From positions 704,001-768,000 of the forward strand of contig OZ241855.1 in assembly GCA_965202785.1 (NCBI GenBank): DNA of 64,000 nucleotides. Direction: 5' to 3'. Shown here piece by piece: positions 22,281 to 63,481 of this stretch. The position numbers were made by a program, and so were the translations under genes. Source of the stretch: Thermodesulfobacteriota bacterium. GTDB taxonomy: Bacteria; Desulfobacterota_D; UBA1144; Nemesobacterales; Nemesobacteraceae. The notes under the pieces were generated by a model. It was not told the DNA's origin. It searched no databases and worked only from the letters and a program-made list of their open reading frames with translations. How positions within the stretch are numbered: the first letter of the stretch is position 1; each line of letters begins with the position of its first letter.

Positions 22281-22632
22281 AGGAATTATTCTTTTAGGTT
22301 GACAGATTACCGATGTCAACCGAACATCGCAGGCTGTGAAAGCTCCATACAGTCTAGTAGCAATTTTATTCTCCTGCTTAACTGTTTGTCAAGTAAAAAT
22401 TAAGTTATTTCAGGGTGATATGGAACGTTTAGTCCTAACAAGCCACCTGCTCCACTCGGGTAAATGGAACTCTCAAACCTTCCCCACATGAATTCAGCCG
22501 ATGAATTACCTGCTTCCACGAGAAGAGATGTCACCGGGATAAGACGGCTCTGGGAATTCAAAGTACTGCACCGCGGGTTCGAGGAAGCGATACAGGGCTT
22601 GGAGAACTTGTAAACTTAAGTCTATAACCCCC
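22281..22632. mobile_element. Decayed MITE-like unit with IS1595/ISNwi1-like terminal repeats
   Basis: Left AGGAATTA-ttcttt-TAGGTTGAC (22281-22303); right revcomp GGGGGTTA-tagact-TAAGTTTAC (22610-22632); flanks ATTTATTA/CATTATTA (6/8). Confidence 0.5.
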
Positions 22633-51068: not shown

Positions 51069-51108
51069 GCCCTGAATGTTTCACGTGAAACATTCAGGGC
51101 TTTTTTTT
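51069..51108 (+). terminator. Terminator-like hairpin built around parS
   Basis: Perfect 32-bp palindrome GCCCTGAATGTTTCACGTGAAACATTCAGGGC followed by T8. Confidence 0.6.
51077..51092. promoter_or_regulatory. parS site 1
   Basis: Exact TGTTTCACGTGAAACA consensus. Confidence 0.92.
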
Positions 51109-52552: not shown

Positions 52553-52565
52553 AAGCGGGGCGGAA

Positions 52566-52581
52566 TGTTTCACGTGAAACA
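52566..52581. promoter_or_regulatory. parS site 2
   Basis: Exact TGTTTCACGTGAAACA consensus. Confidence 0.92.
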
Positions 52582-52584
52582 TTG

Positions 52585-53236
52585 GGGAATTACCAAGTTA
52601 AGCCGGTAATTCCCTTTGTATACACAGAGGAGATGAATAATGAAGAAATTTAGTCTTGTTTTCATGGTTTTTGTTTTAGCGATATTTCTTGCTTGCGATG
52701 ATAACGATAGTGACACTATGGAGATGGAGTCGGAACCGACATCAGTGCCGATGAAAGGGTTTTTCGCCAGCATTGATGAAAACAACATGAACGACTGTCA
52801 AAGTGAAGACCTGACTCTGATGGTGGAAGATGAGTTGGTCATTGGCAGTAGCAACGTTACGGCACTAGGTGCGGGCGAAGCATTTGATGAAGCGGTATTC
52901 GGATATATAGGTATAAAGACGGAAAGCCATATAGCTGCTTCTTATGTAACGTCAACAAGGGAAGGCAGTCTTGTCAATCCCGGCGTTCTTTACCTAAGGA
53001 AGAAAGGGGATATATACGTTGGATTCTGGGGTGGCGAAGCTACACGCCCAGAAGGCAATCCATCCGTTGTTTGTCCTTACATAATGGTTCCGGCAGGTAT
53101 GGCGGAAGAAGATGGTTGTGAAGCGGAAGCGTATTCTGAATATCTCAAGAACGAAGATGGTTTATTAAAGACTTGTACCGCAGCACCAAACAATTAATGC
53201 ACAAAAAGATTTCGTCAACTTAATTTGGTAAGTCCC
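52585..53236. mobile_element. Non-autonomous IR-bounded cassette carrying a lipoprotein gene
   Basis: Left GGGAATTACCAAGTTAAG; right revcomp GGGACTTACCAAATTAAGTTGAC (53214-53236); 8-bp flanks AAACATTG/AAACATTT. Confidence 0.7.
52640..53197 (+). CDS. Hypothetical lipoprotein
   Basis: MKK signal, lipobox FLAC, GAGGAG RBS, four additional Cys, AT-richer codons. Confidence 0.75.
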   Translation: MKKFSLVFMVFVLAIFLACDDNDSDTMEMESEPTSVPMKGFFASIDENNMNDCQSEDLTLMVEDELVIGSSNVTALGAGEAFDEAVFGYIGIKTESHIAASYVTSTREGSLVNPGVLYLRKKGDIYVGFWGGEATRPEGNPSVVCPYIMVPAGMAEEDGCEAEAYSEYLKNEDGLLKTCTAAPNN

Positions 53237-53339
53237 AAACATTTCACAGGGCACTCGGCGAAATGAGTTAGAGGAATCGGACTGTTTGGAAGATTATTCA
53301 GTTATTTAAGGTAGTTAGAATACAGTCTGCGGAGTTCTG

Positions 53340-59809: not shown

Positions 59810-60754
59810 CTAGTAACTTTCCCCGAGCCCGTTTTTAGCCACGTAGCACGCTCCAAGCACCCCTGAGTCGTCTCCCAGAGCGGCTCTCTTTATCTGAAGT
59901 CCCCTCTCCATTCTCCCAAGACACCTTGTTTCGGCTTCCTCAAGCGTTTTCCCGATAAAAAGTTCCCATGCGCCTGAGAGCCCCCCGCCCACGACCACCG
60001 TTTTTACATCGAGAATGTTTACGAGAATTGATATTCCCACCCCCAAATTCGCCCCGAAGTCGTTCCATACCGATATGGCTGCTTGGTCTTTTTCGCGCGC
60101 GAGTTCCGCTAGGCTCTCGGGGAGGGCTGATTCTTCGGTTCCAGCAAGCCTTTCGCGGAGTTGCGGGTCCTCGCGGACGATTCTCCTTATCGCTACCTGC
60201 GAAACATAGGTTTCAATGCAGCCCCTCGCTCCGCAGGCGCAAAGGGGTCCTGACGGGTTAATCGTCATGTGCCCCAACTCTCCGGCGAAGCCGTTTTCCC
60301 CCGACCAGAGCTTGCCGTCGAGGATTATTCCGCCCCCGAATCCGGTTCCCAGGGTTATCATTACCATCGAGTTTGAGCCTCTACCCGCCCCCGCCCGGTA
60401 TTCTCCGAGAGCCGCGCAGGAAGCGTCGTTTTCTATAAAAACGGGGGTTGCGGTTCCGATTTTCTCCGAAAGGACTTCTGTAAACGGGAAATTCTTGGTG
60501 TTTGCTATGTTCGGGGCCTGGACGAGAGTACCGCTTGCGCGGTCAATGGTTCCCGGTATTCCTATCCCGATTGCGGATACCCCTTCCCCGGCTAATCCTT
60601 CTATTAAGCCAGCGAGGTTCTCCATGAGCCGGGAGATACCCATGTGGGCGTCCGAGAGGGTTTTTCTCTCCCCGAGGGTTTCCCCCTCCTCGGAGATAAT
60701 TTTTCCCCTGATGTTGGTCCCCCCTATGTCTATGCCAAGGAATTTCCGCTTCAT
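59810..60754 (-). CDS. ROK family sugar kinase (glucokinase-like)
   Basis: GIDIGGT, ENDA, GELGH, CACGARGCIE. Confidence 0.92.
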   Translation of the reverse strand: MKRKFLGIDIGGTNIRGKIISEEGETLGERKTLSDAHMGISRLMENLAGLIEGLAGEGVSAIGIGIPGTIDRASGTLVQAPNIANTKNFPFTEVLSEKIGTATPVFIENDASCAALGEYRAGAGRGSNSMVMITLGTGFGGGIILDGKLWSGENGFAGELGHMTINPSGPLCACGARGCIETYVSQVAIRRIVREDPQLRERLAGTEESALPESLAELAREKDQAAISVWNDFGANLGVGISILVNILDVKTVVVGGGLSGAWELFIGKTLEEAETRCLGRMERGLQIKRAALGDDSGVLGACYVAKNGLGESY

Positions 60755-60984
60755 TTTCCGTTATTAAGCTGTGAAAAACCGTCCAGAAAACTCTATTTTA
60801 CCCTGTCTTTTCAGAAAATATTGACTGCGGTGGCGGATGAAGACACCGGATTTTTGCGCAAGCCGCATGTAACAAGGTATAAATTTATCCTGATTAGCGG
60901 GCGTTTCGCGTCGTGTATTTTTCGGGATTTATGTATTTAAGTTGACGGATTAGATTCAAGCTGTAAACCGGGTATAATGCAGTG

Positions 60985-62178
60985 ATGATAAGAACTTACA
61001 AGTGCAGGGTGAAGCTGTCCAAGGCTGGTCATGAACGGTTGACCGAGATATTCGCGATGTCTGCGGAGCTGTACAACGCAGGCTTGGAATCCCGCATTGA
61101 CTGCTACAAAAAGACAGGAGAAAGCCGCAGTCTTTATGACCAGTACAAGGAACTTGTGCAGGTAAGAGCGGAGTTGCCGGAGTTTGAATCTATATCCAAT
61201 ATTGTGTTTCGTGGCGTACTCTCAAGGCTTGACAAGGCGTACAAATCGTTTTTTCGGAGGGTGAAGGCAAAGGAGAAAGCCGGATTCCCCCGTTTCAAGA
61301 GCCGGAAACGCTGGCGAACCATAGAGATAAATGACAGGGCATGGAGTATGCTCAAGCGTGAGGGGAACAAACTGATTCTAAAGGTCAAAGGGTTTCCTCG
61401 GATCGAGGTAAGGCCGTCGAGGGAGCTTCCCCCGAATGCCCTGCTCAAGGCGATTCGGATTACCAGAAAGCCTCTGCGGACGGAAGTGGCGTTATCGTAC
61501 GAATTGGCGACTCCCGAGGCAAAACCATTTACCAGCCCCGTTGGAATAGATATGGGCATATCGAAGCGCCTGACCTTGAGCGATGGGGGAACCGTGGAGA
61601 AGCGGGAGATAGACAGAAAGAAACTGATACGCCTTCAACGCTCCGCATCCCGCAAGGTGAAGGGAAGCAAAAACAGGCGTAAAGCGGTGCGTCTGCTCGC
61701 AAAGGAATGGCAGAGGGTATCGGACGGGGAGAGAGATTATCTTCACCGCCTGACCAGAGAGATAGTCAAGATGTACGACTTCATTGCGGTAGAGAAACTG
61801 AAGACAGAAAACATGCTTCGCGACGGGAATTTAGCAAAGAGTATTTCCGAGCAGACTTGGGGCAGTACCATTACGCTGCTTAACGAGAAGGCCGAGAGTG
61901 CTGGCGTTAAGATGGTGGCAGTGAACCCCGAGGGAACTTCGCAGGAATGTTCTGCCTGCGGAGCAACAGTAAAGAAAGACTTGAGCGTGCGTGTCCATAA
62001 ATGCGACTGTGGTTATGTCGCCGACAGGGACATAAACGCTGCAATTAATATCCTTCATCGAGGTATCTCGATTGCGGGCGGGAATGTTACCCGCATGGTC
62101 GGAAGGATTAAAGAGAAGTCAGAAGTTGTTCTGACTCGGCCAAGAACAGTGTACGAAAGTGTCAACTTAAATACATAA
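60985..62178 (+). CDS. tnpB: RNA-guided endonuclease TnpB (IS200/IS605 type)
   Basis: RTYKCRV, LYN, GFPRFKS; RuvC GIDMG / AVEKL / DRDINAAINI; Zn finger CSAC..CDC; TATAAT at 60973. Confidence 0.95.
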   Translation: MIRTYKCRVKLSKAGHERLTEIFAMSAELYNAGLESRIDCYKKTGESRSLYDQYKELVQVRAELPEFESISNIVFRGVLSRLDKAYKSFFRRVKAKEKAGFPRFKSRKRWRTIEINDRAWSMLKREGNKLILKVKGFPRIEVRPSRELPPNALLKAIRITRKPLRTEVALSYELATPEAKPFTSPVGIDMGISKRLTLSDGGTVEKREIDRKKLIRLQRSASRKVKGSKNRRKAVRLLAKEWQRVSDGERDYLHRLTREIVKMYDFIAVEKLKTENMLRDGNLAKSISEQTWGSTITLLNEKAESAGVKMVAVNPEGTSQECSACGATVKKDLSVRVHKCDCGYVADRDINAAINILHRGISIAGGNVTRMVGRIKEKSEVVLTRPRTVYESVNLNT

Positions 62179-62183
62179 TTCCC
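62057..62183 (+). ncRNA. Putative omega (re)RNA overlapping the tnpB 3' end
   Basis: Hairpins ATCGAG/CTCGAT (62057-62072), TGCGGG/CCCGCA (62073-62095), TGGTCG/CGGCCA enclosing AGTCAGAA/TTCTGACT (62096-62142), then GTCAA; boundaries uncertain. Confidence 0.6.
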
Positions 62184-62188
62184 TTTAG

Positions 62189-63481
62189 ATGAACCAAAGA
62201 ACCGCAGCTGTCCTGTCAGCCGTTTTCCTGCTCTTTTTCTACCTTTCCTGTGAAAGACCCCCGGAGATTCCGAGCCCCGAGTCCATGCGGGAGGTTCCCG
62301 CGTTCCCCGAGATGGACGACGACCTTTTCCCTGAGGGACTGAAGGAATCCATCGGCGCAAGCGTCGAGAAACTTTCGCAGAAAAAGGATTCCCAGCTTGT
62401 TTTCGGACAGAAAACCGTCTCCGCAGGGGACTACGCGCTCGCACTCGGTTATCTTCTCGCCAAGCTTGAAGCGGGCGTTACCAAGGATGATTTCATAAAG
62501 GACGTAAGGGAAAATTTCGATTTCTACGGCTTTCCGGGAAAACCCTGGGGCAAGGTTTTTATAACATCTTACTTTTCTCCGGTGCTTTCCGCTTCCCGAA
62601 CCAGGACACCGCAGCATACCCAGCCGCTATACGGGGTTCCCGCCGACCTGGTGCGCCTGAGGATAGACAGGTTCGTCGAGCGATTCGAGAGATTTTCGTT
62701 TCTTGAGGACGACAAGATCGCCCGGGGAAAGCTTCAGTCCCTTTACGGCAGAGTCGCCTCCGGAGGCCCTGGCAGGACGTCGGAGCTGGTTCCCTATTAT
62801 TCTCGAAGCGAGATAGACTCCGGGGGAAGGCTCAGGGGGAAAAGGCTTGAGATCGCGTGGGTAGACCCTGTTGATGCGTTTTTTCTTCAGGTTCAGGGCT
62901 CGGGTAAAATAAGGTTTGCGGACGGAGAAGAGCGGGTCGTGGGCTACGCCGCCCAGAACGGACACGATTACGTGGCGATAGGGAAATTTCTCTTCGAGTG
63001 GATTCCGAAGGAAAAAATGAGCCTTTGGGCCATAGAAAGCCACCTGAGATCCCTCTCCTACGCGGAGAGGATGAAGATTCTTTACAAAAACCCTAGTTAC
63101 ATTTTCTTCCGCGGACTTGCGGGCAAGCCGGAAACTTCTTTCGGAACGGAAGTCGTCGACGGCAGGACTGTAGCGACCGACAAGGCTTTTTTCCCCAGGG
63201 GGGCGCTGGCGTTCATGGAGTTTGAGAGACCGGTTTTCGAAACTCCCTCTTCAGTTGAGCCGTCGCAGTGGGAACCGGTTTCCCGCTTTGTCGTTAACCA
63301 CGACAGCGGCGGAGCCATAAAAGGGGCCCGGCGCGTCGACCTTTTCTGGGGGGAGGGAAAAGACGCCTCCCGGCACGCGGGTGTGATGAAAAACTGGGGA
63401 AAGTTCTTCTATCTGGTGCCGAAGGGGGAATTCCTGACGGTGCTTAGGGCAAAAAACGGCGGCCAGGGCCAAGGAGGATGA
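62189..63481 (+). CDS. mltA: Membrane-bound lytic transglycosylase MltA (lipoprotein)
   Basis: Lipobox LSC, FFLQVQGSG, NPSYIFF, DSGGAIKG..RVDLFWG (3D domain). Confidence 0.93.
   Translation: MNQRTAAVLSAVFLLFFYLSCERPPEIPSPESMREVPAFPEMDDDLFPEGLKESIGASVEKLSQKKDSQLVFGQKTVSAGDYALALGYLLAKLEAGVTKDDFIKDVRENFDFYGFPGKPWGKVFITSYFSPVLSASRTRTPQHTQPLYGVPADLVRLRIDRFVERFERFSFLEDDKIARGKLQSLYGRVASGGPGRTSELVPYYSRSEIDSGGRLRGKRLEIAWVDPVDAFFLQVQGSGKIRFADGEERVVGYAAQNGHDYVAIGKFLFEWIPKEKMSLWAIESHLRSLSYAERMKILYKNPSYIFFRGLAGKPETSFGTEVVDGRTVATDKAFFPRGALAFMEFERPVFETPSSVEPSQWEPVSRFVVNHDSGGAIKGARRVDLFWGEGKDASRHAGVMKNWGKFFYLVPKGEFLTVLRAKNGGQGQGG

Follow-up and report, generated by a model that had tools for sequence, protein, structure and literature searches.

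How does a tnpB gene come to lie between terminal inverted repeats of the kind carried by DDE transposons, with no transposase beside it? TnpB, from which Cas12 descends, is also a compact tool for genome editing, and what is known of its biology comes from IS605/IS607 elements, whose excision leaves no scar. The question is raised by a unit at positions 60924-62183 of a 64,000-nucleotide stretch (the window hereafter) of contig OZ241855.1, which belongs to a Thermodesulfobacteriota genome of 1.64 Mb (GCA_965202785.1, termed G000 here). An earlier sequence-only reading of the window had proposed that an RNA-guided nuclease was captured here as cargo of a non-autonomous cassette resembling an IS1595 insertion sequence (IS) and was mobilised in trans by a DDE transposase. 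The comparison with relatives presented below argues, with a probability that we put at roughly 0.8, for a non-autonomous IS1595-type unit that encloses only tnpB and its omegaRNA and is moved in trans, TnpB having been refitted as a maintenance module.

A solo tnpB unit with IS1595-type ends

The 1260-bp unit at 60924-62183 consists of 23-bp inverted repeats enclosing one intact tnpB. The left repeat (GGGATTTATGTATTTAAGTTGAC, 60924-60946, + strand) also flanks tnpB at 14 loci of sister genomes, and the right repeat (62161-62183, reading GGGAATTATGTATTTAAGTTGAC on the - strand) was recognised by its pairing with the left arm, the two being identical at 22/23 positions after inversion. When the window was searched for the 23-mer with up to 3 mismatches, the only 2 matches were these two arms, and 0 of 100 shuffled windows contained any match, which confirms the tight bounding of tnpB by inverted repeats described earlier. 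The tip GGGAATTAT is present at both ends of the unit, as in IS1595-type ends. The consensus ggnnatTAT, which the sequence-only reading had invoked for these ends, is that of the ISNwi1 group. Within G000 the unit is single-copy.

The open reading frame (ORF) at 60982-62178 on the + strand fills the unit. The likely start of tnpB is the ATG at 60985, giving an intact protein of 397 aa (398 aa from the GTG at 60982), and the TAA stop codon at 62176-62178 indeed falls inside the right repeat. The product matches the Pfam families Cas12f1-like_TNB (PF07282, 2.1e-21) and OrfB_IS605 (PF01385, 2.6e-17), as well as solved structures of ISDra2 TnpB (E 7.6e-36). Residues D189, E270, D347/D349 and C322/C325/C340/C342 are invariant across 11 relatives; we take D189/E270/D349 to be the RuvC triad and the four cysteines to be the CxxC...CxC zinc finger of TnpB, so that the intact catalytic and zinc-finger residues reported earlier are borne out under this assignment. 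No tnpA lies within the unit, also as reported, and the only Y1_Tnp match in the genome (939596-939856 of G000) is about 175 kb away.

To describe how such units move, tnpB relatives were collected from sister genomes, which are metagenome-assembled genomes (MAGs) of Candidatus Dadabacteria or Thermodesulfobacteriota. In 25 of the 35 other genomes of the genus, relatives of 69-91% identity are present in more than one copy. In the closest clade the same 23-mer flanks tnpB at the 14 loci mentioned above, in units of 1239-1268 bp, while more distant clades have repeat variants that retain GGGAATTAT or GGGACTTAT at the tip. Repeat-bounded tnpB genes with duplications also occur in Acidimicrobiia and in G045, a genome from another family of the order, and the tip is likewise retained in G045 and in the copies of about 40% protein identity from MAGs of Acidimicrobiia and OM1. 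Immediately beyond the GGG/CCC tips, direct repeats of 8 bp match at 8/8 positions in 23 of 47 scanned loci and at 7/8 in 4; full 8/8 duplications were found in 6 of 26 further loci and in 4 of 25 metagenome loci. After removal of 2 duplicates (L183 and L185), and with L187 left out for its 7/8 match at a mis-anchored boundary, there are 37 distinct tnpB insertion sites with an 8-bp duplication, all told variable in sequence and AT-rich. For 10 of 27 insertions in sister genomes, G000 contains the empty site that would be expected, in which a single 8-mer joins the left to the right flank, with 1-7 mismatches in 48 nt. The duplications outside the tips and the empty sites together show that this family of units transposes with staggered target cuts.

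Candidate transposases were sought among DDE elements with the same ends. Matches to PF12762 (DDE_Tnp_IS1595) are present in 31 of 36 genomes of the genus, the fragment in G000 itself included. A first 18-mer search around the transposase genes placed the ends of just 4 of 30 loci, since with their cargo many of the units reach 3-5.6 kb, and a scan for motif plus duplication was too strict; the ends were resolved by a genus-wide search for the 23-mer pattern, which matched in 24 of 36 genomes (reversed control pattern, 0). One complete unit of 1788 bp (L043) encodes a transposase together with a small passenger ORF between perfect 23-bp repeats and is flanked by an 8-bp duplication, and its repeat agrees with that of the tnpB unit at 19/23 positions. 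Six further units of 1973-5578 bp (L194-L199) combine repeat pairs and 8-bp duplications with an IS1595 transposase at one end, and the repeats of L194-L196 agree with the tnpB-unit repeat at 21/23; the L194 transposase matches PF12762 at 1.1e-38 and PF12760 at 8.6e-09. Restriction-modification cargo is carried by IS1595-type units L194, L197, L198 and L200 (3.3-5.6 kb), including a D12 methylase, Eco57I/MmeI-like fused enzymes and a ResIII helicase with an N6_N4 methylase, and L200 has such cargo and a 7/8 duplication without a transposase. DDE elements with PF12762 and PF12760 domains thus share these ends at 19-21/23 positions and make 8-bp duplications.

An IS1595 transposase was found beside tnpB at none of 112 tnpB loci (0.4-1.5 kb of flank). 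Since there is no transposase in the unit or at any of these loci, the tnpB unit looks always solo and non-autonomous, and as a dependent unit it is not, strictly speaking, an IS. Mobilisation in trans by IS1595-family transposases is the economical and most likely explanation; the cassette proposed in the sequence-only reading gains support from the shared ends and the duplications, with the step in trans still an inferred one.

Two transposase relics were seen in G000 outside the window. Positions 265712-266931 hold a 1220-bp unit with the same ends and two small ORFs, one of which has a DTG motif and appears retropepsin-like by eye. A 19-codon remnant of the N-terminus of an IS1595 transposase lies beside its right repeat, and this unit is a transposase element that has decayed and now holds other content. 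At 1314126-1315965, a repeat of the same type (at 1314126) is followed by tRNA-like fragments and a Rieske-like ORF (both by eye); the region includes an N-terminal part of an IS1595 transposase (aa 22-136), and its far end is GTCAAGCCCCTAACTACTTATT, with a similar string at about 270220.

An omegaRNA-like fold reaching into the right repeat and a G on one side

To look for an RNA at the 3' end of the unit, the last 220 nt of 23 diverse units were aligned together with 16 nt of flank (alignment A2). Covariation in this alignment delineates an omegaRNA-like structured region at 62057-62183 (+ strand), with five helices and a pseudoknot. All six helices, the pseudoknot counted, are supported: 92.9% of the alignment cells pair, versus 28-48% with slid partners, and 15 of 28 pairs change on both sides, which 0 of 500 shuffles reach. 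Folded as a single sequence, 62057-62183 gives -40 kcal/mol (z -2.55). Two of the pairings use bases of the right repeat, namely the helix 62149-62153/62172-62176 and the pseudoknot 62080-62083/62180-62183. A subterminal GTGTA in the window covaries with the variable repeat core TACAT, the corresponding pairs elsewhere being CCT/AGG and AGA/CTA, and a loop GGGA pairs with the terminal UCCC, replaced by GGGG/CCCC in one Acidimicrobiia copy. Sequence conservation ends at the repeat tip and the fold ends at 62183, as would an omegaRNA at the element boundary.

A 3' pseudoknot is usual in prokaryotic omegaRNAs according to a 2026 review (PMC13565253), and the predicted fold fits the omegaRNA scaffold of a TnpB that ends at the element boundary with this pseudoknot. 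By analogy with TnpB omegaRNAs, the guide would be encoded by the 8-bp duplication plus the right flank; in the window the predicted guide-encoding flank is 62184-62203 (+ strand, TTTAGATGAACC...), which includes the start codon at 62189 of a MltA-like gene. Since the right repeat forms part of the omegaRNA-like fold, the tnpB lineage is, judged from sequence comparison, an old and co-adapted one rather than a recent capture. The earlier description of tnpB as captured cargo understates how far the RNA and the repeat have been merged.

The 37 insertion sites were then oriented by tnpB, position -9 being the base directly 5' of the left duplication copy. A G occupies this position in 37/37 sites, preceded by T in 19 and by G in 12, and one clade mostly has ATG. 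A C stands at the mirror position on the right in just 7/37. Of 12 units without TnpB but with ends of the same kind, 5 have the left-hand G, 6 the right-hand C and 4 neither, so that the difference for G at -9 (37/37 vs 5/12) has a Fisher p of 9e-6, the caveats being a small control set and relatedness among the sites. As the two repeats are identical over 23 bp, it is not evident how the transposase could tell which way the cargo points. We therefore somewhat favour, on the sequence pattern, the interpretation that the G is a target-adjacent motif (TAM): the one-sidedness would arise because TnpB reads this G in the empty allele, next to a target made up of the duplication and the right flank.

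The proposed mechanism weighed against its rivals

In the mechanism that we propose, IS1595-family DDE transposases would recognise the ends that the tnpB unit shares with their own elements, move the unit in trans and generate the 8-bp duplications. The omegaRNA scaffold would overlap the 3' end of tnpB, finish at the outer end of the right repeat and pair with repeat bases, and the guide would follow as the 8-bp duplication and the right flank. In the empty site, whether before insertion or after recombination between the duplication copies, the target would be preceded by the left flank ending in G (often TG or ATG), and this terminal G would be read as the TAM. At the right junction of the occupied site, the repeat-terminal C stands at the position of this G, and self-targeting would not occur. 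An empty allele cut in this way could be repaired from an element-bearing copy, with the insertion restored or spread. Mobilisation in trans, expression of the RNA, the role of the G and homing are all inferred steps. A more tentative, and on balance slightly doubtful, extension is that an old TnpB lineage of Dadabacteria and Acidimicrobiia has been rebuilt for a duplication-making DDE transposon with which it never shares a unit, by means of a repeat-based omegaRNA, a guide starting at the duplication, a G TAM and protection by C.

Several observations weigh against the proposed mechanism. No Rfam family was found in 60700-62400 even at a permissive threshold, and a related copy is covered (61609-62118, 74 differences) by a single RNA-library contig, which may be DNA carry-over. 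Of the 47 scanned loci, 20 (the window copy among them) score 6/8 or less for the duplication, some being mis-anchored by the repeat finder and some truly lacking a duplication. The window copy has no target duplication, and G000 has fragments but no intact IS1595 transposase, so the copy may no longer be able to move. The ends of the transposase elements match those of the tnpB units at 19-21/23 positions and not exactly, and co-resident transposase elements do not always have the same repeat variant. No inverted ends were found in any of the metagenome relatives of 39% identity or less or in eight longer tnpB paralogues of G045 (L174-L181).

The strongest competitor accepts that the unit moves as described but takes the G to reflect which targets the transposase, or else a host factor, prefers, TnpB being a passenger with another role or none. 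We regard this as unlikely, though the most serious of the rivals. It draws on the small control of 12 TnpB-less units, in which 11 of 24 ends have G outside the 8-mer versus about 25% expected, so that the transposase itself may prefer G. It also draws on the size of the motif: one base would be unusually short, TnpB TAMs usually having 4-5 nt (PMC13565253). Such a preference should act alike on two repeats that are identical over 23 bp, yet the G is found at every tnpB site on one side while its mirror C is rare; moreover, 4 of the 12 TnpB-less units have G on neither side, and the asymmetry matches the direction in which the guide would be read.

That a different enzyme made the repeats and duplications, either another DDE family or TnpB itself acting as transposase, seems improbable to us. 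In its favour, no transposase is ever linked to tnpB in cis at the 112 loci; against it, PF12762/PF12760 transposases are encoded near one end of units that share these ends and have 8-bp duplications, and the 19-codon remnant lies beside the repeat of the decayed unit in G000. TnpB is not known to have strand-transfer activity. Still less credible is a domesticated tnpB, serving as host regulator or defence gene between relic repeats, even though the gene is single-copy, lies 5 nt upstream of the start codon of a cell-wall gene and has no transposase at hand. The insertion is absent from this site in all 27 sister loci listed, its catalytic residues are preserved, sister genomes hold several copies of the clade with fresh duplications, and conserved synteny of tnpB with the neighbouring gene across species was not seen.

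Least probable of all, and very remote in our estimate, is an ordinary tnpB-only element of the IS200/IS605 type (IS1341 group) inserted 3' of TTGAC in the loop of a palindrome, the repeats being the two halves of the target. The idea has some appeal, since the two repeats joined at TTGAC would make a neat hairpin, and IS200/IS605 elements insert beside short motifs (PMC13565253). Nevertheless, the sequence shared by copies reaches the outer GGG/CCC, with 8-bp duplications outside the repeats at 37 sites, instead of stopping at TTGAC and TCAA with repeat-free flanks, and neither repeat half is present in the empty sites. The repeats change together with the tnpB clades and pair with the omegaRNA, an uninterrupted palindrome of the repeat sequence was not found in G000, and no Y1 transposase is nearby. 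IS200/IS605 elements are marked by subterminal hairpins in place of terminal inverted repeats, by insertion 3' of a fixed 4-5 nt motif with no target duplication, and by a Y1 (HUH) TnpA in the element or close by with matching ends; the tnpB units have 23-bp inverted repeats and, in relatives, variable 8-bp duplications, and the unit in the window has no TnpA.

TnpBs that are linked to DDE transposases, or stand alone within inverted ends, are an already known kind. Altae-Tran et al. (2023) describe in their main text six DDE-associated TnpB branches (DDE-1 to DDE-6), all with inverted terminal repeats, as well as solo TnpBs whose ends are nearly identical to those of transposase-bearing systems and for which mobilisation in trans was inferred. 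The unit described here resembles those branches in having TnpB inside the symmetrical inverted repeats of a DDE transposon and the 3' end of tnpB near the transposon end. It differs in that the branches are defined by a neighbouring transposase gene, of which the 112 loci have none, and in its IS1595-type ends: that main text names IS630 and mentions IS1595 0 times. Neither repeat-omegaRNA pairing nor a one-sided G was found in it, and an overlap of this lineage with one of the branches is possible, the comparison covering the main text alone. In PMC13565253 the DDE partners of prokaryotic TnpB are ISL2, IS630 and IS1031, and the rarity of prokaryotic OMEGA (short for obligate mobile element-guided activity) systems with DDE transposases is left unexplained, with inflexible target recognition suggested as its cause. 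Literature listings on TnpB paired with IS1595 contained nothing relevant. Four features appear to be new: IS1595 as the partner, a tnpB unit that is strictly solo, an omegaRNA that makes use of the terminal repeat, and the one-sided G.

Another parallel is Fanzor1 in eukaryotic DDE transposons (Bao and Jurka 2013). Fanzor1 is a TnpB homologue that also lies inside transposons of several DDE superfamilies with terminal inverted repeats and target-site duplications (PMC3627910, PMC13565253), and its guide RNA is read out across the transposon end (PMC13565253), as proposed here. In Fanzor the 5' duplication is part of the TAM and the 3' duplication part of the RNA scaffold (PMC13565253), whereas in the tnpB unit the variable 8-bp duplication would form the first 8 nt of the target and the TAM-like G would lie outside it. 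Fanzor1 has lost the 3' pseudoknot (PMC13565253), but here a pseudoknot with the last four bases of the repeat is kept. IS200/IS605 elements have neither terminal inverted repeats nor duplications in the same review, in contrast to the tnpB units, which have both. Like the IS1341 group, the units are tnpB-only, about 1.2-1.3 kb long, with an omegaRNA at the 3' end and in need of a transposase in trans. Passenger-carrying IS1595 elements (ISNwi1 group, 'transporter IS'; ISfinder, Siguier et al. 2009) reportedly have GGnnnTTAT-type ends, 8-bp duplications and passenger genes enclosed by the ends, and the units with restriction-modification cargo in sister genomes are of this sort. Those elements carry their own transposase, while the tnpB unit has none and has its cargo RNA fused to the end.

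If the more tentative extension is true, the G at 37/37 sites would mean either that an insertion lasts only at sites whose empty allele can be cut by TnpB or, on a bolder view, that TnpB helps to choose the insertion site. The lineage would then be a natural case of RNA-guided homing made compatible with bacterial cut-and-paste DDE transposition, and it offers a testable solution to DDE-OMEGA compatibility: a scaffold fused to the repeat, a guide that starts with the duplication and a minimal G-ending TAM outside. Dozens of natural pairs of insertion and empty site are available for the design of experiments. Editing would profit from so short a TAM, if it is real. Gene-neighbourhood surveys can miss DDE-mobilised TnpBs that never adjoin their own transposase.

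The insertion site in the window and neighbouring units

The window copy has no 8-bp duplication, as the sequence-only reading had cautioned, the two flanks being TATTTTTC and TTTAGATG. To reconstruct the site, the orthologous position was compared among sister genomes: the tnpB unit is absent from all 27 loci listed, and 13 of the 27 read ...tatttttcCTTTAGAGAACCAACAGGTTTAGATGAACC... at the insertion position. Set against these 13 empty sites (...tatttttcCTTTAGAGAACCAACAGGTTTAGATG...), the left junction at 60916-60923 lacks 18 bp (CTTTAGAGAACCAACAGG) between 60923 and 62184. Data from public sequencing runs, used as contigs, agree with this, since contigs of runs X20 and X4 join 60923 to 62184/62183 with the same 16-18 letters between. 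The duplication is thus missing because 18 bp of target, together with one duplication copy, were lost at the junction. Two histories both fit, namely insertion at TTTAGATG followed by a left deletion, or insertion at TATTTTTC followed by a right deletion, and in either case G precedes the 8-mer. By comparison with the sister loci, the insertion is recent and lineage-specific. The IS1595 transposase genes of G000 are all fragmentary, so this copy is probably stranded.

The MltA-like gene downstream begins 5 nt beyond the right repeat. The lost 18 bp include a GAGAA stretch that lies 5' of its start codon in sister genomes, so the translation signals of this gene have been replaced by repeat sequence. 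In two sister loci (L080 in G019 and L081 in G025), a 12-bp in-frame remnant like the outer repeat end, TCTATAAGTCCC and TATATAATTCCC respectively, stands directly after the ATG of the same MltA-like gene, at the position orthologous to 62184-62200 of the window. This suggests an older insertion and its loss at nearly the same spot in those species.

Upstream of tnpB, a TATAAT box at 60973-60978 (+ strand), 6 nt before the ATG, may serve as a promoter and would give a near-leaderless mRNA; it is predicted from the sequence, and 'gtataat' was found again upstream of tnpB in relatives. A strict sigma-70 scan of the left end returned no full + strand promoter. No stand-alone copy of the omegaRNA region was found elsewhere in G000 by nhmmer. 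The genome contains a second tnpB (1452090-1452947, - strand, 28% identity, in a 411-aa frame), around which the repeat scan found no inverted ends; this gene and the longer paralogues of G045 may be ordinary IS605/IS607-type copies. An integron attC reading of the unit was dropped on inspection of the sequence, since the core-site pattern does not fit.

Two other, unrelated units with the same repeat type had been noted in the window, and they were located at 22281-22632 and about 52585-53236, with more diverged repeats (5-6 mismatches). The 352-bp unit at 22281-22632 has diverged ends of the same type, AGGAATTATTCTTTTAGGTTGAC and GGGGGTTATAGACTTAAGTTTAC, a degenerate duplication and no cargo identified, and it looks like a miniature inverted-repeat transposable element. 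Inverted ends of a related type, GGGAATTACCAAGTTAAG... and GGGACTTACCAAATTAAGTTGAC, bound the unit at about 52585-53236 (within 52563-53252), whose cargo is a small lipoprotein-like ORF. This unit is inserted within a copy of the palindrome GAATGTTTCACGTGAAACATTC with the duplication AAACATT(G/T), and an intact palindrome of this type is present at 51069-51100 of the window. IS1595 units L043 and L199 of sister genomes are inserted in the same type of palindrome, which may be a preferred target.

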